Shown here piece after piece: positions 18,657 to 29,227 of a stretch of DNA of 64,000 bases. How positions within the stretch are numbered: position 1 is the stretch's first letter; every line of letters starts with the position of its first letter. A program made the translations under genes and the position numbers. This DNA comes from Escherichia phage 348Ecol098PP: sequence record OR062947.1. One strand, 5' to 3'. The notes under the pieces are model-generated. The model worked only from the letters and a program-made list of their open reading frames with translations. It was not told where the DNA came from and ran no database searches.

Positions 18657-21368
18657 ATGAAAGAATTTTACTTAACGGTTGAACAGATTGGTGATTCAAT
18701 TTTTGAACGTTACATCGATTCTAACGGCCGTGAACGTACTCGTGAAGTAGAATATAAACCATCACTGTTTGCTCATTGTCCAGAAAGTCAGGCTACGAAA
18801 TATTTCGATATCTACGGTAAGCCGTGTACTCGTAAGTTGTTCGCTAATATGCGTGATGCCTCCCAATGGATTAAACGCATGGAAGATATCGGTCTTGAAG
18901 CACTTGGCATGGACGATTTCAAATTGGCGTATTTGTCTGACACTTATAACTATGAAATCAAATACGACCATACAAAAATTCGTGTGGCTAACTTCGACAT
19001 CGAAGTAACATCTCCCGATGGGTTCCCTGAGCCATCACAAGCAAAACATCCGATTGATGCTATCACCCATTATGACTCAATTGACGACAGGTTCTACGTA
19101 TTTGATCTATTGAATTCTCCATATGGTAATGTAGAAGAATGGTCTATTGAAATCGCTGCTAAGCTTCAAGAACAAGGCGGTGATGAAGTTCCATCCGAAA
19201 TTATCGATAAAATCATTTATATGCCGTTCGATAACGAAAAAGAATTGTTGATGGAATATCTCAACTTCTGGCAACAGAAAACTCCTGTCATTTTGACTGG
19301 ATGGAACGTTGAGTCATTTGATATTCCATATGTGTATAACCGAATCAAGAATATTTTTGGCGAATCTACTGCGAAACGTTTATCACCACATCGTAAAACT
19401 CGTGTTAAAGTTATCGAAAACATGTATGGTTCTCGTGAAATCATTACATTGTTCGGTATCTCTGTTCTTGATTACATTGACCTTTACAAAAAATTCTCTT
19501 TTACCAATCAACCATCGTATTCTCTGGATTACATTTCAGAATTTGAATTGAACGTTGGTAAACTGAAATATGACGGCCCTATTTCTAAGCTTCGTGAAAG
19601 CAATCACCAACGATATATTTCTTATAACATTATCGACGTGTATCGTGTATTGCAAATTGATGCTAAGCGTCAGTTCATCAACTTGAGTTTGGACATGGGT
19701 TATTATGCTAAAATTCAGATTCAATCTGTGTTTAGCCCAATTAAAACATGGGATGCTATTATTTTTAATAGCCTTAAAGAGCAGAACAAGGTGATTCCAC
19801 AAGGTCGTTCTCACCCGGTTCAACCTTATCCTGGCGCTTTTGTTAAGGAACCTATTCCAAATCGATACAAATATGTAATGAGTTTCGACCTTACATCTCT
19901 GTATCCAAGTATTATTCGCCAAGTGAATATTAGCCCGGAAACAATAGCAGGAACGTTTAAAGTAGCTCCATTGCATGATTATATTAACGCAATCGCTGAA
20001 CGTCCTTCAGATGTGTACAGTTGTTCTCCTAACGGCATGATGTATTATAAAGACCGTGATGGTGTAGTTCCAACTGAAATCACTAAAGTCTTTAATCAAC
20101 GTAAAGAACATAAAGGTTATATGCTTGCGGCTCAACGTAATGGCGAAATAATTAAAGAGGCATTGCATAATCCTAATCTTTCTGTTGATGAACCATTAGA
20201 TGTTGATTATCGTTTCGACTTCAGTGATGAGATTAAAGAAAAGATTAAAAAGTTGTCTGCTAAATCTCTTAATGAAATGTTGTTTAGAGCTCAACGTACT
20301 GAAGTTGCAGGTATGACTGCCCAAATTAACCGTAAATTGCTTATCAACTCACTTTATGGTGCACTTGGAAACGTTTGGTTCCGTTATTATGATTTGCGTA
20401 ATGCTACTGCAATCACAACATTTGGTCAAATGGCTTTACAGTGGATTGAACGTAAAGTTAATGAATATCTGAATGAAGTTTGTGGTACAGAAGGTGAAGC
20501 TTTCGTTCTTTATGGTGATACAGACTCTATTTACGTATCTGCTGATAAAATTATCGATAAGGTTGGTGAATCTAAATTCCGTGATACCAACCATTGGGTA
20601 GACTTCTTAGATAAGTTTGCACGTGAACGTATGGAACCAGCTATTGATAGAGGTTTCCGTGAAATGTGTGAATACATGAACAATAAACAACACTTAATGT
20701 TCATGGACCGAGAAGCTATCGCTGGTCCTCCACTTGGTTCTAAAGGTATTGGTGGATTCTGGACTGGTAAGAAACGTTATGCATTAAACGTGTGGGATAT
20801 GGAAGGTACTCGTTACGCTGAGCCTAAACTCAAAATCATGGGTCTAGAGACTCAGAAATCTTCGACTCCTAAAGCAGTACAGAAAGCTCTTAAAGAATGT
20901 ATTCGTCGTATGCTTCAAGAAGGTGAAGAATCATTACAAGAATATTTTAAAGAGTTTGAAAAAGAATTCCGTCAATTGAATTATATTAGCATCGCGTCTG
21001 TATCTTCTGCGAATAACATTGCTAAATATGATGTTGGTGGATTCCCTGGCCCCAAATGCCCATTCCATATTCGTGGAATTCTGACGTATAACCGGGCTAT
21101 CAAAGGTAATATCGATGCACCGCAAGTTGTAGAAGGTGAAAAAGTATATGTTCTGCCTTTACGTGAAGGAAACCCATTCGGTGATAAATGTATCGCATGG
21201 CCTTCTGGTACTGAAATCACAGATTTAATTAAAGACGACGTACTTCATTGGATGGACTACACTGTTCTCCTTGAGAAGACATTTATTAAACCACTTGAAG
21301 GATTCACATCAGCAGCGAAACTCGATTACGAGAAGAAAGCATCTCTGTTCGATATGTTCGATTTTTGA
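18657..21368 (+). CDS. 43: DNA polymerase gp43 (family B), RB69-type 903 aa
   Basis: MKEFYLTVEQIGDSIFERYIDSNGRERTREVEYKPSLFAHCPESQ... exo and pol motifs (FDIEV, YGDTDS). Confidence 0.97.
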   Translation: MKEFYLTVEQIGDSIFERYIDSNGRERTREVEYKPSLFAHCPESQATKYFDIYGKPCTRKLFANMRDASQWIKRMEDIGLEALGMDDFKLAYLSDTYNYEIKYDHTKIRVANFDIEVTSPDGFPEPSQAKHPIDAITHYDSIDDRFYVFDLLNSPYGNVEEWSIEIAAKLQEQGGDEVPSEIIDKIIYMPFDNEKELLMEYLNFWQQKTPVILTGWNVESFDIPYVYNRIKNIFGESTAKRLSPHRKTRVKVIENMYGSREIITLFGISVLDYIDLYKKFSFTNQPSYSLDYISEFELNVGKLKYDGPISKLRESNHQRYISYNIIDVYRVLQIDAKRQFINLSLDMGYYAKIQIQSVFSPIKTWDAIIFNSLKEQNKVIPQGRSHPVQPYPGAFVKEPIPNRYKYVMSFDLTSLYPSIIRQVNISPETIAGTFKVAPLHDYINAIAERPSDVYSCSPNGMMYYKDRDGVVPTEITKVFNQRKEHKGYMLAAQRNGEIIKEALHNPNLSVDEPLDVDYRFDFSDEIKEKIKKLSAKSLNEMLFRAQRTEVAGMTAQINRKLLINSLYGALGNVWFRYYDLRNATAITTFGQMALQWIERKVNEYLNEVCGTEGEAFVLYGDTDSIYVSADKIIDKVGESKFRDTNHWVDFLDKFARERMEPAIDRGFREMCEYMNNKQHLMFMDREAIAGPPLGSKGIGGFWTGKKRYALNVWDMEGTRYAEPKLKIMGLETQKSSTPKAVQKALKECIRRMLQEGEESLQEYFKEFEKEFRQLNYISIASVSSANNIAKYDVGGFPGPKCPFHIRGILTYNRAIKGNIDAPQVVEGEKVYVLPLREGNPFGDKCIAWPSGTEITDLIKDDVLHWMDYTVLLEKTFIKPLEGFTSAAKLDYEKKASLFDMFDF

Positions 21369-21408: not shown

Positions 21409-22044
21409 ATGAAAACTACTCCTATTACTATCGCTATTGACGCAATCATAAAACAATCTTCTTCTTTGGCCGCTATGGCCAAAGTAATTAGTCAAAACCC
21501 TGCTCGTTATAATGCTATTCTAGAAACTCTTCGACGTCCGGGACTTAGTAATTATGAAAGTCGTGTAATTATTACAGGTGTTGGTAAGAATGCTAATATT
21601 GCAACTAAAGCTTCTGAGACATTTGCTTCACTCGGTATCCCGAGTATGTACTTGAACACTGGGCATTATTCTCACGGCGATGCAGGATTCATTGCGCCTA
21701 ATGATGTGTTGATTCATATTAGTCGTTCTGGTAAAACTGAAGAAATGATAGGCGTGGCTAAGCATCTTAAAATGATTCGACCGAACGTCAAACAGATTCT
21801 GTTGCATTGTAACCCAGACATTCCACAAGAAAATGAAGCCCTTTTTGATTACTCTTTCTGTACAGGCATCGCAGTAGAGGTTGATGAGAATTCTCTGGCT
21901 CCGACTATGTCCACTACATTGTTGTTAGCGCTTATCGATACGTTTGCTATCAACCTTTCGTCTGAACGTGGATTTACCTCTAATGATTTCCTTAAGTTCC
22001 ATCCAGGCGGTGCACTAGGTGCCATGTTACGAGGCGAGCAATGA
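21409..22044 (+). CDS. SIS-domain sugar-phosphate isomerase, KdsD/KpsF/GutQ-type arabinose-5-phosphate isomerase-like (no CBS domains)
   Basis: GVGKNANIATKASETFASLGIPSMYLNTGHYSHGD, ISRSGKTEE, LAPTMSTTLLLAL, RGFTSNDFLKFHPGGALG match the API SIS-domain pattern from memory. Confidence 0.75.
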   Translation: MKTTPITIAIDAIIKQSSSLAAMAKVISQNPARYNAILETLRRPGLSNYESRVIITGVGKNANIATKASETFASLGIPSMYLNTGHYSHGDAGFIAPNDVLIHISRSGKTEEMIGVAKHLKMIRPNVKQILLHCNPDIPQENEALFDYSFCTGIAVEVDENSLAPTMSTTLLLALIDTFAINLSSERGFTSNDFLKFHPGGALGAMLRGEQ

Positions 22045-22225: not shown

Positions 22226-23911
22226 ATGAAAAAAGCTGTTATTCTTGGTGCTGGACTAGCAACTCGTTTGTATCCAATAACGCATCATATTCCTAAGGTG
22301 CTTGTTAACTATAAACAAGACACTATTCTGAGCAATTTGTATACAATTTATTCTGACCTTGGCGCAGATGAAATTATTGTAGTAGTTCATTCAAAATTTG
22401 CTGGAACTGTTCGAGCTTATTGTGAGCAAGAAGGGTTCAATGTGACTATTCGTACAGTTGATGAAGCGTATGGTTCTGCTTATGCTCTTGCTAAATTGCA
22501 CAAAGATTTAGACGGCCATAATGTAATTGTTAACTGGTGTGATATTATTCCTGATTTTGGTTCATGGTCTTGGAATGTTAACGCAATCTATGTTAAGGGT
22601 GACGAATGTCGATATAATTTCGACGGTGAAAATATCACTAACGTAGGTTCAACAGGTGGTAATGTTGTAGGAATTTACCAGTTCAAAGACTGGGAATTCT
22701 ATATGGGTTCTACCGATGAGGAAATTCATGAATACTGCAAAGGACGTGATTTCGTAGAATTCCTTTACGGCAGTGCATTCAATAAATCAGAGCTTATGAA
22801 TCTAATTGATTTAGGTGATATGCCTAAACTTGAAAAGGCTCATGAAGTTCGTGAACTTAATCGTAGTTTTAATGCAGTTGAAATTGGTGAAGAAACTGTA
22901 ACTAAATTCGCATTAACCGAACAAGGCCGAGCTCTTCAGAAAGATGAGATTTCATGGTATCTTAAAGTGAAATCAGATTCAGTTCCTCAGTTAGTTTCTG
23001 TTAATGAAAATAACTTTGAAATGGAACGCATTAAAGGTAAGCCGGCATTTGAATATATTAAATCCAAATCGAGTCTCGCTCGTCCACAAATTGTTGATGC
23101 AATTTTAGATGCACTGAAATTCAGCACAGACACTTATTTTGTAAGTCCTGAAACTGTTCGTCGTGATTTCACTAAAGAATTCTATACGAAAGTTATTGAT
23201 CGTTGTGAAAGTATTCAACCATTGATTGATTCATTTGGTAAAATAACACATGTGAACTACACTAAGATTGGGCGTCTGAAGCCAATGTTGAAACAAGCTT
23301 TAGAACACCTTATTCGTTATCATAACCGTTCTCAGGGACAGTACTCTGTTATTCATGGTGACCCGAACTTCAGTAATACTATGATTACTGATAATGGCGA
23401 AGTCAAGTTTATCGACCCTCGTGGATATTTTGGTGAAACCAAGATTTACGGGCCAAAATTGTATGATGAAGCTAAAGTGCTTTACGCTGTTTCAGGATAT
23501 GATGAATTCAACGCTAATCCGACCTGGGGGCAGTTTACTATTGATGAAACAACTTGTAATGTGACTATTAACATCAATCCATTAGTTTACAAATATGGAA
23601 AGATGAGTTCGTTTAACGAGTATCATCATTTGGCGGTGGCAATTATCTGGATTGCATTAGGTGGTTATTTCAAGAATAATCCACTTAAAGCGGTAGCCGC
23701 ATATTATAAAGGTATGGAACTTCTGACTAAGCAATTACGTAACATGGGCCGTGTACTTCAGGACGGCACCATTAGTTATGACGTAGCAGAACCTGTAACG
23801 GCTACTCTGATTACAAAAAATCCTGGTAAATGGGTACTAACTGATAAAGAAACTGGTGTTTCCTATCGTCCAATCGGTGGCGATATCACTCATCAATGGG
23901 AACGAATCTAA
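22226..23911 (+). CDS. bifunctional sugar-1-phosphate nucleotidyltransferase / sugar anomeric kinase (APH/choline-kinase fold) fusion
   Basis: N-terminal AVILGAGLATRLYPIT..PK nucleotidyltransferase signature; C-terminal IHGDPNFSN and FIDPRG kinase motifs. Confidence 0.75.
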   Translation: MKKAVILGAGLATRLYPITHHIPKVLVNYKQDTILSNLYTIYSDLGADEIIVVVHSKFAGTVRAYCEQEGFNVTIRTVDEAYGSAYALAKLHKDLDGHNVIVNWCDIIPDFGSWSWNVNAIYVKGDECRYNFDGENITNVGSTGGNVVGIYQFKDWEFYMGSTDEEIHEYCKGRDFVEFLYGSAFNKSELMNLIDLGDMPKLEKAHEVRELNRSFNAVEIGEETVTKFALTEQGRALQKDEISWYLKVKSDSVPQLVSVNENNFEMERIKGKPAFEYIKSKSSLARPQIVDAILDALKFSTDTYFVSPETVRRDFTKEFYTKVIDRCESIQPLIDSFGKITHVNYTKIGRLKPMLKQALEHLIRYHNRSQGQYSVIHGDPNFSNTMITDNGEVKFIDPRGYFGETKIYGPKLYDEAKVLYAVSGYDEFNANPTWGQFTIDETTCNVTININPLVYKYGKMSSFNEYHHLAVAIIWIALGGYFKNNPLKAVAAYYKGMELLTKQLRNMGRVLQDGTISYDVAEPVTATLITKNPGKWVLTDKETGVSYRPIGGDITHQWERI

Positions 23912-24297
23912 TGCACCGTGTAGAAAACATGCTTAATCTTTGTTTTGATGTCGATGATTGTATAACAGAGTGGAATAACAATCGTGATTACGTGAACTTC
24001 AAACCAGACGTCGAAATGGTGTCTGCCATTAATGCCCTATATGATGCAGGGCATACCATAACGCTTTACACTGCTCGCGGTATGAAGTCAGTAGGTCCTG
24101 GTCGTATAGCAATTGACATTCTCCCAAGTCTGATTCAGAACTTGGCAAACATTGGCTTGAAGTACCATAATTTGCTAACACATAAACCAGTATATGATTG
24201 GATTATCGACGACAAAGCTATGCGTCCTGACGAATTCAAAGCTCTTATGAATAAAGGCGAATTCGAAACATTTAAATCATATAAACCGAATCTATAA
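23911..24297 (+). CDS. HAD-superfamily phosphatase
   Basis: motif I FDVDDCIT near N-terminus; TAATG overlap with upstream stop; ORF-track frame. Confidence 0.65.
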   Translation: MHRVENMLNLCFDVDDCITEWNNNRDYVNFKPDVEMVSAINALYDAGHTITLYTARGMKSVGPGRIAIDILPSLIQNLANIGLKYHNLLTHKPVYDWIIDDKAMRPDEFKALMNKGEFETFKSYKPNL

Positions 24298-24351
24298 TAA
24301 TTTAAGTAAGACCTGCAAAAACCATCGCAACAATTAACGCGAGATGCAAAA

Positions 24352-25512
24352 ATGAATACCTTTAAAATCGGAACGAATTTTGATTTAGCTCTTCTTGATA
24401 AAATCGTAGAGCTCAATAAAACTTATCCTAATAGCTTGATAAACGAAGTATACGGCTCTACAAGAGAAATGGCTTTTGTAGCAGCCAGACCTGATTTTAG
24501 GCTTCCTGACGTTGACAAAAAGATGTTAGAAGATTACGTTAAACGTTGTAACGAATTAGGTATTTGCTTTAACTATACACTCAACACGATAAATCCTGGT
24601 TCAAAAAGAGAACTAGTTGAGTGGAAGAAGAAAGCTATTCAGGATTATGTTCAGTATCTTTGGTCAATAGGCGTATGGCGTATTACTATCGCTAACCCTG
24701 TTGTTATGGAAATTGTTCGTGAAGTCAATAAAGACATTGAGATTGAAGTTTCAACAATTCTACATGTCGATGCTGTAACTCAAATCAAATACTTGCATGA
24801 CCAATATAATATCAAAAAGGTCTGCTGTGGAATTCATAAGAACCGTTCAGTTTCTTTCCTGAAGCGTGCAGCAGAGTTTTGCAATAAGAACAATATAATA
24901 TTTGAAGTTCTCGTAAATGAATTCTGCTCTAATGCTGGTAAAGGGTATACAACACATTGTAGTTATCGTGACTCTTGCTATATTTTCCATAGCACCGATG
25001 TTACAGTAGATGATGCCAAATCCTTAAATGGATATCCTATGCAGCACTGTATTAAAGCTCGTGATACAGACCCATTTAACTGGTTGAGAACTCGTTTTGT
25101 TCGTCCTCAAGATTTGAAACTTTATAATGATATTGGTATCACTCAATTCAAAGTTTCAGGACGTACAGGTAGCACCGACTACATTTTGAAAGTTCTTGAA
25201 GCTTATGCTTCTGAAAAGTTTGAAGGTAATTTGTTGGAATTGTGGAAGCCTTTAGAGACTATTTTCACTCTTGAAAATGAGACCGAGTTTTCACATACGG
25301 TAAATATTGAAACCTCTTTGTTAGATGGCTTTTTAGAAAAAAGGTGGTTCAAACATCCAGATTTCGATTGTGCTAATGAAATCTGCGGGACGACGTGTAC
25401 ATATTGTGAAAGATATTATAAACGTCAGTTATCTAAAAATGGGTTAGCAGAAAACTCTATATCTATTATTGATATAACTAACTCTGATGACGCTTTGAGG
25501 TACCCGGAATGA
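24352..25512 (+). CDS. peptidase-U32-family (TIM barrel, Cys-rich) protein
   Basis: NEVYGSTREMAFVAARPDF, ICFNYTLNTINPG, EFCSNAGKGYTTHCSYRDSC resemble U32 proteins as recalled from memory. Confidence 0.5.
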   Translation: MNTFKIGTNFDLALLDKIVELNKTYPNSLINEVYGSTREMAFVAARPDFRLPDVDKKMLEDYVKRCNELGICFNYTLNTINPGSKRELVEWKKKAIQDYVQYLWSIGVWRITIANPVVMEIVREVNKDIEIEVSTILHVDAVTQIKYLHDQYNIKKVCCGIHKNRSVSFLKRAAEFCNKNNIIFEVLVNEFCSNAGKGYTTHCSYRDSCYIFHSTDVTVDDAKSLNGYPMQHCIKARDTDPFNWLRTRFVRPQDLKLYNDIGITQFKVSGRTGSTDYILKVLEAYASEKFEGNLLELWKPLETIFTLENETEFSHTVNIETSLLDGFLEKRWFKHPDFDCANEICGTTCTYCERYYKRQLSKNGLAENSISIIDITNSDDALRYPE

Positions 25513-25790
25513 TTTCTAGAAAAACTTTTAACCACCAACTTAATGAAGAGATTTTGACTATGAAAATTAACAGCAACGAACAAATTCTTAAAAAGGCCCT
25601 TATGGGCCTGTTTGAAACTAAAGCGGCTAAAGTGATTAAAGAAACCTGTTCAACTAGAATACTACGCTGATGCATTTCTTCATAGTGTTCTTGGAAGTAT
25701 CGATGCTGAAGCTTTACGTTATATCAACATCGCTAAGAAATTCAAATAAGCTTTATGAATTGAGTATATAATAACTGTATTGAGGTAAAC

Positions 25791-26507
25791 ATGGGAAAAC
25801 ATAACACAATGAAATATATTAAAGCCGCAGATTTTCAATCCGCATTTAAAGCTGTCAATCGTGAAATTTTAGAAAATCCACAGTTCGTTACTGACTCTCG
25901 TATTGGACGTTGTAATGAAATTGGGTCTATGACAGTAGTTGTTGATACCCCTTCATCATTCAAAATGACCGACCCACGTATTAATCGCATCTCTTATGAA
26001 TATGCTGAAGATTTCTGGAAATTTATGATTTCTGGTGGTACTGATGCAGAAGAAGCATTTAAGGCATATCCTAACGTTGCTAAATTTATTTCTAAACCTA
26101 AATCAGATGCTTTGCCTGCAAACTTCAACACTTTCTACGGTCCACGAATTGCGGCCCAGTTACCAGCTCTTCTCAAAGAACTTAAAGAGAAACCTAATTC
26201 ACGAAGAGTTGTGTTTCAAATTCTTGAAAGTTCAGATCAGGCTTTGCTTGATTCGGATGAAACACTTGAATATCCATGTACTGACTCAGTGACTTATTAT
26301 ATTCGTGATGGTAAGCTTTATACCCACTGTCATATGCGTTCTCAGAACTGTGCTGTTGTTATGCAGTTGGATTTTTATCTCCAAGGAAAATTACTTCATT
26401 ATATCGCTAACGAATGTGGTGTAGAAGTTGGTGATTATACTCATACCATGGTAAGTGCCCATGTGTTTGAACGTGATTTTGATTATGTTAAAGGATTCCT
26501 TGACTAA
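25791..26507 (+). CDS. 42: dCMP hydroxymethylase (thymidylate-synthase fold)
   Basis: PNSRRVVFQI and YPCTDSVTYYIRDGKLYTHCHMRSQN align with the SRR and catalytic Cys regions of T4 gp42. Confidence 0.8.
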   Translation: MGKHNTMKYIKAADFQSAFKAVNREILENPQFVTDSRIGRCNEIGSMTVVVDTPSSFKMTDPRINRISYEYAEDFWKFMISGGTDAEEAFKAYPNVAKFISKPKSDALPANFNTFYGPRIAAQLPALLKELKEKPNSRRVVFQILESSDQALLDSDETLEYPCTDSVTYYIRDGKLYTHCHMRSQNCAVVMQLDFYLQGKLLHYIANECGVEVGDYTHTMVSAHVFERDFDYVKGFLD

Positions 26508-27406
26508 TGGCTATTTTCCGCGTACCTATCTTGAGTATGCGGTCTTATGAAACTGGACAGTATGCTATCCTTAAGGATGGCAACTTCCAACTTCATTTGC
26601 ACCGTGCTAATCCGGGTGATGTGATTACATATCCACGTAATGCATCTGATATTAAAGAATGTGAACGTCTTTTCCCAGAATTTAAGTTTGTTCCATTATG
26701 GTATAAAGATAACGCATATAACACTCGTAAATATTTCTGGTCTGAAAATGAATTTGTGGTTGATTCATTAATTGATTATTATGATTGTGATTTTCTAATC
26801 ACAGATATCACTGGATATGACGGTACTTTTGACGTAGAATTCAATTTCAATATCACTGCAGACCCTAATAAACCACGTTTTTATATTGACGAATTCTTAA
26901 AAACCGATATGTTGTCGGTTAATCGTTCACTTCAAACTACTGTGTTGAATAAACGTCAAAAGGAAGTGCTGGTTAACGCTGGTGCCGATGGTAATAAGAT
27001 TATCGTAACCCAGAAAGTTATACGTCCTTCCATCATGCAGCGTCTTGTAGGTGATTTGGCTCCTATTCATCTAGATGGTATTTTTCATCCATTTCGAATT
27101 AGTGATCCGTGCTATCGTTTTGAACAAGTGGTTGAATGCGCGATTCAATTAGGTCAACCGCTTTATATAACCGATCCAAATAATAGCTTCGACAGAAATA
27201 AGTATCCTGAAGAAGCGTTGATTCGAATTTTTAAACCAACTAAAACTGAGTACTATCAAATTCTTAAAGGACGACCGAAGATTCAATATTTCGAAAATCC
27301 TGAAGAAGTATTTCATCCAGGTCTTGGTGAGTTCATCTACTTTAACGCTTTAATTTCTTCGCCGTATAATATACCTAAATATGAAGATGTCGTAATCGAG
27401 GAATAA
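26507..27406 (+). CDS. hypothetical protein (299 aa) in the syntenic slot of T4 beta-glucosyltransferase; function unknown
   Basis: ORF track; TAATG coupling to gene 42; no recognisable beta-gt similarity. Confidence 0.8.
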   Translation: MAIFRVPILSMRSYETGQYAILKDGNFQLHLHRANPGDVITYPRNASDIKECERLFPEFKFVPLWYKDNAYNTRKYFWSENEFVVDSLIDYYDCDFLITDITGYDGTFDVEFNFNITADPNKPRFYIDEFLKTDMLSVNRSLQTTVLNKRQKEVLVNAGADGNKIIVTQKVIRPSIMQRLVGDLAPIHLDGIFHPFRISDPCYRFEQVVECAIQLGQPLYITDPNNSFDRNKYPEEALIRIFKPTKTEYYQILKGRPKIQYFENPEEVFHPGLGEFIYFNALISSPYNIPKYEDVVIEE

Positions 27407-27407
27407 A

Positions 27408-27956
27408 ATGGCTAAAATTATTTTAGTAGATGGCCCAGATAATGCTGGTAAAACAACTTTCATTAATGACATAATGGAAATTAGTGAAAGATATGTAAAG
27501 ATTGATTTCCCTAAACGAACAGTTGATGGACGTTTCGATGTTAAGTCTCGAAATGAAGTTGGCTGTTTCGAAACGATGTTGAATTATTTAGACCCTACTA
27601 AGATTTATCTGTTAGACCGTGGATATATTAGTAACTGGGTTTATGGACGTATTCGACAAGACGCGGACTCGGTTCTTGACGTTTATGAACAGGATTATGT
27701 TCGTCTTTGCCAAAACCATGATGTGTTCACAATTATTTTAACACGTAACGAAATGACTGAAAGTTTTGAAGACGACCTTATTACTTTGTCTTCATTCGGT
27801 TTTAATACAGTCATTTCACATTTTGAAGAGTTTGCAATTCATAACAAAATCCAAACGTATCAATTACTTAATCATGATGGTGCTAACAAAGTTATAGGAT
27901 TTAATGCAAGCGAACGTAATGATTTGATTACAGAAATCATCAAATGGGCTCGTTAA
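27408..27956 (+). CDS. P-loop kinase (thymidylate/nucleoside-monophosphate kinase-like)
   Basis: Walker A ILVDGPDNAGKTTF; size 182 aa; GAGGAA RBS. Confidence 0.7.
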   Translation: MAKIILVDGPDNAGKTTFINDIMEISERYVKIDFPKRTVDGRFDVKSRNEVGCFETMLNYLDPTKIYLLDRGYISNWVYGRIRQDADSVLDVYEQDYVRLCQNHDVFTIILTRNEMTESFEDDLITLSSFGFNTVISHFEEFAIHNKIQTYQLLNHDGANKVIGFNASERNDLITEIIKWAR

Positions 27957-28054: not shown

Positions 28055-29227
28055 ATGTCTGATTTAAAATCTCGTCTGATTAAAGCTTCTACTTCTAAAA
28101 TGACTGCAGACTTGACTAAGTCTAAGCTGTTTAATAATCGTGATGAAGTCCCTACTCGTATTCCGATGTTGAATATTGCACTAGGTGGTGCTCTGAATGC
28201 AGGATTGCAATCAGGCTTGACTATTTTTGCTGCACCTTCTAAACATTTTAAAACATTGTTTGGACTGACCATGGTTGCAGCATATATGAAGAAATATAAA
28301 GATGCAATTTGTTTGTTCTATGATTCAGAATTTGGTGCTTCAGAATCTTATTTTCGTTCAATGGGTGTTGATTTAGACCGTGTAGTTCATACTCCGATTC
28401 AATCTGTCGAACAACTTAAAGTTGATATGACTAATCAGCTTGACGCGATTGAACGTGGTGATAAAGTTATTATCTTTATCGATTCAATCGGTAATACTGC
28501 ATCTAAGAAAGAAACCGAAGATGCGTTGAACGAGAAAGTTGTAGGTGATATGTCTCGTGCTAAGGCACTTAAATCTCTGTTCCGCATTGTGACTCCTTAT
28601 CTGACTATTAAAGATATTCCATGTGTTGCAATCAACCATACAGCAATGGAAATCGGCGGACTATATCCTAAAGAGATTATGGGCGGCGGTACAGGTATTC
28701 TTTACTCTGCTAACACTGTATTCTTTATCTCTAAACGTCAGGTTAAAGAAGGTACAGAATTGACCGGTTATGACTTCACGTTGAAAGCAGAAAAATCTCG
28801 CACAGTTAAAGAGAAATCTACTTTCCCGATCACGGTTAATTTTGATGGCGGTATTGACCCATTCAGTGGCTTGTTAGAAATGGCAACTGAAATTGGTTTT
28901 GTAGTTAAGCCTAAAGCCGGGTGGTATGCTCGTGAATTCCTTGACGAAGAAACAGGCGAAATGATTCGTGAAGAAAAATCATGGCGTGCTAAAGCTACTG
29001 ATTGTGTAGAATTTTGGGGGCCGTTGTTTAAACATAAGCCTTTCCGAGATGCAATTGAAACTAAATATAAACTAGGTGCTATCTCTTCTATTAAAGAAGT
29101 TGATGACGCTGTTAACGACCTTATTAATTGCAAAGCAACAACTAAAGTTCCGGTTAAAACTTCTGATGCTCCGTCTGCAGCAGATATAGAAAACGACCTT
29201 GACGAAATGGAAGATTTCGATGAATAA
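28055..29227 (+). CDS. uvsX: recombinase UvsX (RecA-like)
   Basis: 390 aa; N-terminal MSDLKSRLIKASTSK...; RecA fold motifs. Confidence 0.95.
   Translation: MSDLKSRLIKASTSKMTADLTKSKLFNNRDEVPTRIPMLNIALGGALNAGLQSGLTIFAAPSKHFKTLFGLTMVAAYMKKYKDAICLFYDSEFGASESYFRSMGVDLDRVVHTPIQSVEQLKVDMTNQLDAIERGDKVIIFIDSIGNTASKKETEDALNEKVVGDMSRAKALKSLFRIVTPYLTIKDIPCVAINHTAMEIGGLYPKEIMGGGTGILYSANTVFFISKRQVKEGTELTGYDFTLKAEKSRTVKEKSTFPITVNFDGGIDPFSGLLEMATEIGFVVKPKAGWYAREFLDEETGEMIREEKSWRAKATDCVEFWGPLFKHKPFRDAIETKYKLGAISSIKEVDDAVNDLINCKATTKVPVKTSDAPSAADIENDLDEMEDFDE

Follow-up and report, generated by a model that had tools for sequence, protein, structure and literature searches.

A U32-family protein encoded in the arabinosyl-5-hydroxycytosine cluster of an RB69-like phage is a candidate oxygen-independent cytosine hydroxylase

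The characterized proteins that come closest to the one considered here are found in Escherichia coli, and they include RlhA (YdcP), responsible for 5-hydroxycytidine-2501 of the 23S rRNA, TrhP, and the pair UbiU/UbiV. All of them need prephenate, which was shown to be the oxygen donor in the case of ubiquinone, and in E. coli the hydroxylations that depend on RlhA and on UbiUV are restored by a chorismate-mutase domain alone; prephenate is the product of chorismate mutase (CM). The present work deals with a phage gene for a protein of this U32 family. It was found in a stretch of 64,000 nucleotides from Escherichia phage 348Ecol098PP (sequence record OR062947.1), the whole of which is called the window, where it occupies positions 24352-25512 of the plus strand and runs from ATG to stop, encoding a putative iron–sulfur (Fe-S) protein of 386 residues that is the ortholog of RB69 gp50 (RB69p050).

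A second piece of background comes from phage RB69 itself, whose DNA was reported by Lee et al. (NAR 2026, PMC13326640) to carry arabinosylated 5-hydroxycytosine and not arabinosyl-hydroxymethylcytosine. These authors identified gp48, a thymidylate-synthase (TS) homolog, as a 5-hydroxy-dCMP synthase that binds flavin and, according to 18O2 labelling, takes its oxygen from O2, and found that gp48 plus a dNMP kinase is enough in E. coli for the 5-hydroxycytosine pathway. The rest of the island was assigned to the synthesis of UDP-arabinofuranose, by a SIS isomerase, an AfhE-like kinase/pyrophosphorylase and an AfhF-like phosphatase, followed by transfer of the sugar by a glycosyltransferase (GT). 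In that paper gp50 is confined to a table, where it is called a "sugar or heterocycle reductase" and given structural matches to 5d88; the text of PMC13326640 uses none of the words U32, peptidase, prephenate or hydroxylase, and its discussion names two pathways of RNA pyrimidine hydroxylation and draws no connection from them to gp50. Elsewhere RB69p050 is annotated as "peptidase", a Pfam U32 match for RB69ORF050c has been on record since 2006 (PMC1524935), and the paper on phage Thanatos modelled the ortholog TH1_065 and said nothing more on it. No link between a phage U32 protein and 5-hydroxycytosine was found in the literature, as far as this was accessible. The family assignment is thus old, and an assignment of function is without precedent in the accessible literature.

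The comparison of the window with RB69 changes the way in which the surroundings of the U32 gene have to be read. The preliminary description of this locus regarded the nearby TS homolog (25791-26507) as a dCMP hydroxymethylase, a label that does not survive: the protein is 99.2% identical to RB69 gp48 and, because RB69-type DNA carries arabinosylated 5-hydroxycytosine, it is actually a 5-hydroxy-dCMP synthase, an activity established experimentally for gp48 (PMC13326640). With a 5-hydroxy-dCMP synthase as its neighbour, the U32 protein is likely to be a parallel hydroxylase for the same reaction and not an additional step. Homology and gene context make it fairly probable, in our judgement, that this protein hydroxylates cytosine at C5 in a prephenate-dependent and O2-independent manner. 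The Fe-S enzyme would need no O2 and would use prephenate as the oxygen donor, the chemistry proposed for RlhA, TrhP and UbiU/UbiV; its substrate would most probably be dCMP, and formation of 5-hydroxycytosine within DNA seems less likely. The product, 5-hydroxy-dCMP, would then be phosphorylated, incorporated into DNA and arabinosylated. Under anoxia the U32 protein would thus duplicate the reaction that the TS homolog carries out with O2 and flavin, and DNA with arabinosyl-5-hydroxycytosine could stay fully modified when the facultative host grows without oxygen, for instance in the gut. What is observed, and what underlies this proposal, is the family, the fold, the motif residues and cysteines, the linkage to prephenate synthesis, the linkage to GT and kinase genes in places where the TS homolog is missing, and the distribution of hosts; from these we infer the reaction, the substrate, the need for prephenate, Fe-S binding and the role in anoxia.

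That the reading frame is a real gene is clear from its conservation. It was recovered by tblastn in 221 phage records, each with at least 80% amino-acid identity, and among Mosigviruses its codons differ by 21-23 synonymous and only 2-4 non-synonymous changes, so the gene is under strong purifying selection and is not due to chance. Indeed, in every cross-genus comparison the U32 protein surpasses all others of the island in conservation, UvsX, gp41 and gp43 included: with respect to Shewanella phage Thanatos-2 the identity reaches 79.5%, compared to 72% for the TS homolog, 68% for UvsX, 67.5% for gp41 and 47.5% for the GT.

Membership in the U32 family, which the preliminary description had proposed with moderate security from three peptides, was borne out by independent means. 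The three peptides all lie in the reading frame, NEVYGSTREMAFVAARPDF at residues 31-49 (24442-24498), ICFNYTLNTINPG at residues 71-83 (24562-24600) and the Cys-rich EFCSNAGKGYTTHCSYRDSC at residues 190-209 (24919-24978). The profile search suggested there retrieved Pfam PF01136 (Peptidase_U32) over residues 94-286, with E = 6.3e-11 and 42.4 bits vs a gathering score of 22.4, and the same match is precomputed on nearly all homologs of the protein, which also matches phrog_5757 (E = 1.8e-266). When the family profile was compared by hhalign with a profile of E. coli UbiU, UbiV, TrhP and RlhA, they aligned over 280 columns with 98% probability (E = 1.1e-12); among the single E. coli paralogs it was RlhA that scored best (74% vs at most 9% for the others). 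Likewise, the AlphaFold model that had been recommended as a check (AlphaFold2; predicted local distance difference test score, pLDDT, 91) has as its best fold match in the PDB the entry 5d88, the sole solved U32 protein, and the model predicts a TIM-barrel-type U32 fold as in that structure. The protein is, therefore, a true member of the Peptidase_U32 family, homologous to the characterized prephenate-dependent hydroxylases. It is not an equivalog of UbiU, UbiV, TrhP or RlhA: the NCBIfam models returned no equivalog assignment, UbiU being the only match with 19.4 bits vs a cut-off of 440, a Pfam scan of the protein revealed neither DUF3656 nor Peptidase_U32_C, and phmmer against all PDB sequences gave no match at E <= 1. 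It represents instead a distinct subfamily, with about 1,200 representative clusters among 1.84 billion, and its relatives in metagenomes form a large clade with 40-58% identity to the window protein.

The residues that matter in the characterized enzymes can be located in this subfamily. A variant of the U32 signature motif, E190-F191-C192 ... C203-x5-C209 ... H213 (24919-24990), is invariant in 121 family members, with identities down to 48%; by hhalign, E190-F191, C203 and C209 align with E161-F162, C169 and C176 of RlhA, and they were aligned to the UbiU motif too. In RlhA, C169 and C176 are essential for the formation of 5-hydroxycytidine (ho5C), the E161A mutation nearly abolishes it, and activity also requires cysteines of the C-terminal part (PMC5727448); in UbiU, the motif cysteines C169 and C176 are required for activity. 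The phage motif deviates from the canonical one in having C-x5-C in place of C-x6-C and a 10-residue insertion after E-F, which carries the invariant C192. Close to its C-terminus the protein has an additional four-Cys cluster, C340-x4-C345-x3-C349-x2-C352 (25369-25407), invariant among the homologs and not present in UbiU, UbiV or TrhP, which is a candidate for a second Fe-S or metal site. In total, invariance or near-invariance holds for ten cysteines (C158, C177, C192, C203, C209, C233, C340, C345, C349 and C352), enough for two Fe-S clusters, with only two of them mapping to known ligands. A short local match between C233 and C39 of UbiV was set aside as due to chance (probability 0.7%).

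A key observation concerns the supply of prephenate. In the Serratia phage LC53, the Enterobacter phage Entb_45, the Klebsiella phage CP-p-KP-21072 and the Shewanella phage Thanatos-2, a gene for a type II chorismate mutase (CM_2, above the Pfam threshold) overlaps the stop codon of the U32 gene. CM directly adjoins U32 in 18 of the 22 T4-like U32 loci, mostly downstream with a 4-nt overlap; it lies upstream of U32 in a metagenomic T4-like contig (L015), and in Thanatos-2 the pair occupies a different position of the cluster. This variation in position indicates that U32 and CM stay together through rearrangements. The same association is seen from the side of CM, as this gene was found in 51 of 50,697 phage records, all of them belonging to Straboviridae genera with U32 and none to the U32-less groups, and no CM was present in any of three U32-less clusters examined. 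The phage enzymes keep the catalytic residues R11, R28, K39, S84 and Q88 of E. coli chorismate mutase. In addition, contigs of an unrelated, jumbo type carry beside U32 a fusion of 3-deoxy-D-arabino-heptulosonate 7-phosphate (DAHP) synthase with CM, a DAHP synthase alone or a CM alone, in 8 of 28 clusters. Apart from the requirement for prephenate, nothing that we know of connects chorismate mutase with U32 proteins.

Several observations on these genes deserve separate mention. Bifunctional DAHP synthase-CM genes, with both domains above the Pfam threshold, were located in the jumbo-type contigs L047 (8411-9433), L050 (7302-8357), L051 (8332-9387) and L061 (11079-12197), and they are phage-carried auxiliary genes of the shikimate pathway. 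The Klebsiella phages of the Clarke_MM3 type (L004 and L023) have kept U32 (89% identity) and lost the CM of other Klebsiella phages, and their cluster has no SIS isomerase gene. In the 64-kb window itself there is no CM, the search having returned chance matches only (E > 0.1). The homolog of RB69p049, of 79 residues, which stands in the CM slot, was considered as a diverged mutase and rejected, as it gave no CM_2 match at E <= 10 and an hhalign probability of 0.2%. The slot is thus held in Mosigvirus by an unrelated 79-codon reading frame, and the enzyme would there depend on prephenate from the host.

A second key observation was made in U32 loci more distant from those of T4-like phages. 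The set comprised 28 dereplicated non-T4 viral loci, with about 20 kb (+/-10 kb) looked at around each. Homologs of the window GT are the most frequent neighbours, lying at most six genes from U32 in 20 of the 28 loci and usually at position -1, and they are often accompanied by homologs of the thymidylate-kinase-like protein. Other neighbours are AfhE-like proteins (12 loci), SIS (9) and HAD (9) proteins, dCMP deaminase (4) and dUTPase/DCD (3); dCMP deaminase stands directly upstream of U32 in three loci, and thymidylate kinase, deoxynucleoside kinase (dNK), NT5C and dUTPase/DCD recur around it. The TS homolog, on the other hand, was near U32 in just one of the 28 viral loci and in none of ten loci from cellular genomes. 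A DNA glycosyltransferase requires a hydroxyl on the base as its acceptor. In these phages the U32 protein is the only candidate hydroxylase seen near the glycosyltransferase. The simplest reading is that it and the TS-type flavoenzyme represent alternative routes to the same kind of hydroxy-pyrimidine nucleotide.

These loci also contain some particular arrangements. The GT and the thymidylate-kinase-like protein occur as fusions, single proteins of 550-606 residues, in L045 (2594-4411), L054 (5237-7057) and L060 (5354-7006), which suggests that both work together physically. A three-gene unit consisting of a guanylate-kinase/SAM-methyltransferase (SAM, S-adenosylmethionine) fusion, a protein of about 265 residues and U32 is conserved in Bacteroidales and Bacillota genomes, with examples in Phocaeicola faecalis (L078, 3984-7137), Tannerella (L077, 7872-11080) and L011 (5912-9098), and it might constitute a pathway of nucleotide hydroxylation followed by O-methylation. 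Furthermore, a second and very distant U32 paralog, with 22% identity to the window protein, is found a few genes away from the first one in L011 (13227-14360) and L012 (8422-9555), where it adjoins radical SAM/SPASM and nucleoside deoxyribosyltransferase-like genes.

The third line of evidence is the distribution of hosts. The U32 gene was found only in phages of facultative anaerobes, that is, of Enterobacterales and Shewanella, the hosts of the 221 records being Escherichia, Shigella, Klebsiella, Serratia, Proteus, Yersinia, Enterobacter, Providencia, Edwardsiella, Erwinia, Pectobacterium and Shewanella. The synthase without U32 is found in 57 Acinetobacter and about 30 Rhizobium/Agrobacterium phage records, the hosts of which are strict aerobes, and in one Pseudomonas phage. 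As regards cellular organisms, the U32 clade is present in 10 of 185,579 species genomes, mostly of strict anaerobes, with carriers among the Erysipelotrichales and Oscillospiraceae and in Romboutsia, Tannerella and Phocaeicola. This distribution mirrors the pairs TrhP/TrhO and UbiUV/UbiIHF, for which facultative anaerobes have the two routes and obligate anaerobes that of U32 only. A strict rule by which every phage of a facultative anaerobe would have U32 was ruled out, as the Dhakaviruses of E. coli are without it. Equivalent clusters without U32 are those of Dhakavirus JS10, Acinetobacter phage Maestro and Pseudomonas phage PspYZU05, and Maestro makes the same modification (PMC13326640). 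These clusters are complete, so U32 is an accessory module and not a core component of the arabinosyl-5-hydroxycytosine cluster, and it is dispensable for the aerobic pathway.

Other explanations of the U32 gene were weighed against the same evidence. The one that deserves most attention, although we regard it as rather unlikely, retains the chemistry and places it on the polymer: cytosines of phage DNA would be hydroxylated after replication, as a proofreading or backup activity, so that every C accepts arabinose. The arguments from prephenate and oxygen hold for it equally; moreover, all the characterized nucleic-acid U32 enzymes use polymers, RlhA and TrhP acting on folded RNA, RlhA is the closest E. 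coli paralog, and the GT that adjoins U32 acts on DNA. However, the recurrent neighbours are enzymes of mononucleotides (dCMP deaminase at position -1, the thymidylate-kinase-like protein, dNK and NT5C), Pfam revealed no nucleic-acid-binding domain such as the DUF3656 of RlhA, and the known phage routes to this type of base all operate at the dNMP level (PMC13326640). A redox enzyme of the sugar branch, modifying arabinose, another pentose phosphate or an NDP-sugar, is what the published labels would convey ("sugar or heterocycle reductase" in PMC13326640 and "UDP-arabinose biosynthesis" in BASEL), and U32 does often adjoin sugar-activation genes of the AfhE, SIS and HAD types in divergent loci. 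Against this, the route from ribulose 5-phosphate to UDP-arabinofuranose is complete without U32 in the Dhakavirus, Acinetobacter and Pseudomonas phages, and U32-less phages such as Maestro make the same modification, which disfavours the sugar alternative. Sugar chemistry does not account for the linkage to chorismate mutase and DAHP synthase either, and U32 is also found with different sugar genes (Glf/TAGT) or with none, as in the dCMP deaminase context. To our knowledge, no U32 protein acts on sugars, and we hold this role to be quite improbable. Of the two targets named in the preliminary description, in which a hydroxyl would be added to, or altered on, a base or a sugar unless the protein had another role, it is hence the base that is now favoured, by the coupling to CM, the replacement of the TS homolog and the host distribution, and the sugar that loses ground.

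Still less can be said for an RNA hydroxylase of the TrhP or RlhA kind, taken over by the phage, that would modify tRNA or rRNA of the host or the phage and tune translation during infection. It is true that the only nucleic-acid U32 enzymes characterized act on RNA and that T4-like phages encode tRNAs, but the protein is not a TrhP or RlhA equivalog in NCBIfam, it always lies within clusters of DNA modification or deoxynucleotide metabolism, and the hosts already encode TrhP and RlhA, all of which makes this role very improbable. Finally, the database names, together with reports of some U32 proteins (PrtC, HP0169) as collagenases, would make it a true collagenase-type peptidase. This is hardly credible for a protein whose context is entirely one of nucleotide and DNA modification, for which neither a signal peptide nor a known proteolytic target was found, and whose conserved residues are the Glu and Cys of the Fe-S/hydroxylase type; besides, a peptidase would leave the linkage to chorismate mutase without explanation.

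A cytosine C5 hydroxylase acting without O2 is, in consequence, the explanation we prefer, and a number of points weigh against it. It is built on homology and gene context, and in vitro reconstitution has not been achieved for any U32 hydroxylase, so that the chemistry of the family is itself partly inferred. In spacing and insertion the motif is non-canonical, and of the four ligands of the canonical cluster no more than two are alignable with confidence. Mosigvirus and one type of Klebsiella phage are without CM and would rely on PheA/TyrA of the host. The Dhakaviruses, with E. coli as host and the same pathway, do without U32, so that a phage of this niche can dispense with the gene. The host pattern rests on few independent clades, and host assignments of metagenome bins are unreliable. 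As for the divergent loci, a TS homolog may be present elsewhere on these contigs, given that only about 20 kb per locus were covered, and the co-occurrence with the AfhE, SIS and HAD sugar-activation genes would fit a sugar-related role too.

Taking a wider perspective, one may propose, more tentatively, that the phage U32 protein, often with a CM of its own, is the first O2-independent route to a hypermodified DNA base: a backup to the O2-dependent synthase in T4-like phages of facultative anaerobes, and the sole hydroxylase in a large clade of phages that infect strict anaerobes, feeding glycosyl- (possibly methoxy-) pyrimidine modifications that are chemically undescribed. If this were so, a virus-encoded U32 hydroxylase acting on DNA precursors and having its own supply of prephenate would be new, and the U32/prephenate chemistry would reach beyond RNA and quinones to DNA precursors, and into viruses. 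It would also explain the presence of shikimate-pathway genes (chorismate mutase and DAHP synthase) in phages and predict undiscovered hydroxy-pyrimidine modifications in the DNA of strict-anaerobe phages. The only known 5-hydroxycytosine enzyme of these phages needs O2, and the anoxic gut is where their hosts mostly live; there the U32 protein would solve the problem of protection. From a practical point of view, Mosigvirus and its relatives are used in phage therapy and in restriction and defence typing, and their resistance to nucleases may depend on oxygen and on the aromatic amino-acid metabolism of the host. Should dCMP be the substrate, this would be the first U32 hydroxylase that lends itself readily to reconstitution in vitro, opening the mechanism of prephenate as an oxygen donor to direct study.

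The window belongs to Mosigvirus, the RB69 group of T4-like phages, as recognized from its genes for DNA polymerase, UvsX and gp41 and from a nucleotide identity of 98-99% to many Escherichia phages (F2, ST0, HX01 and others). The island containing the U32 gene is bounded by gp43 (18657-21368) and uvsX (28055-29227) and constitutes a conserved cluster with the 5-hydroxy-dCMP synthase, the AfhE- and AfhF-like enzymes, the GT and the kinase, in the same gene order as in RB69. All the genes of the island named here are on the plus strand, and their assignments draw on PMC13326640 (Table 1 for the GT and the kinase), except for U32 and the RB69p049 homolog. They start with the SIS-domain arabinose-5-phosphate isomerase (21409-22044; RB69 gp55 ortholog, Pfam SIS), the AfhE-like bifunctional sugar kinase/nucleotidyltransferase (22226-23911; RB69 gp52:53 ortholog, with NTP_transferase and kinase-like Pfam matches) and the AfhF-like HAD phosphatase (23896-24297; RB69 gp51 ortholog), which is kept across loci. 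After U32 come the RB69p049 homolog (25509-25748), the start of which overlaps the U32 stop codon (ATGA) and which matches phrog_8601 over positions 1-50 of 79, the O2-/flavin-dependent 5-hydroxy-dCMP synthase already described (RB69 gp48 ortholog, Pfam Thymidylat_synt), the putative first DNA arabinosyltransferase, which is the GT referred to above (26507-27406; RB69 gp46:47 ortholog), and the thymidylate-kinase-like nucleotide kinase (27408-27956; RB69 gp45 ortholog).

Two small differences from RB69 were noted in this region. In the window, the RB69p049 homolog is split by a 1-nt insertion into 25509-25670 and a remainder in the +1 frame; the insertion is an extra A near 25642, in ATTAAAGAAACC, not present in RB69, Bas47 or an IMG/VR Mosigvirus (L022), and the split reflects a sequencing error or else a genuine pseudogene. 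In turn, the run of A before the U32 start (24340-24354) is apparently one base shorter than that of RB69, as judged from the annotated MQK N-terminus of the RB69 protein and not from a direct alignment. The window reading frame begins at the ATG at 24352 because the upstream ATG annotated in RB69 and Bas47, which adds MQK, is out of frame here.

When the locus is set beside the systems described at the outset, the closest likeness is that to RlhA, with which the phage protein shares the U32 domain, the aligned Glu and two Cys, the possession of extra C-terminal cysteines and, by analogy, the chemistry proposed for it, that is, hydroxylation of cytosine at C5 with prephenate and an Fe-S center. 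Nevertheless, identity between them is about 22%: RlhA has 653 residues, includes DUF3656 and targets one rRNA residue, whereas the phage protein has 386 residues and no DUF3656, shows C-x5-C with the 10-residue insertion, differs in the pattern of its C-terminal cysteines and is encoded in a DNA-modification cluster. The only U32 protein of solved structure, Mk0906 of Methanopyrus kandleri (5d88), is 12% identical to it, has 247 residues and is devoid of the C-terminal four-Cys extension. With RB69 gp48, DLP3 gp80 and the HY126 synthase it would have in common the product, 5-hydroxy-dCMP, and the role in the pathway, and it is encoded two genes away in the same cluster, but fold and cofactor are unrelated, and the role of gp48 (flavin and O2) is experimentally proven while that of U32 is a proposed one. 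T4, with aerobic NrdAB and anaerobic NrdDG, is an example of a T4-type phage in which one step of DNA-precursor synthesis is served by an O2-dependent and by an O2-independent enzyme; the U32/TS pair would catalyze a different reaction and belongs to different enzyme families, so the parallel is one of analogy only. Precedents of the same logic are TrhP with TrhO, and UbiU-UbiV with UbiI/H/F, where, as would be the case here, a prephenate-dependent and O2-independent U32 enzyme stands beside an O2-dependent enzyme for the same hydroxylation. There, the enzymes are chromosomal and cellular, and the substrates are tRNA and a prenylated phenol, respectively; in the phages, the O2-dependent partner is a flavoenzyme of thymidylate-synthase fold, the system is viral and, unlike what is seen for the E. 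coli U32 genes examined, an enzyme that forms prephenate is encoded beside U32.

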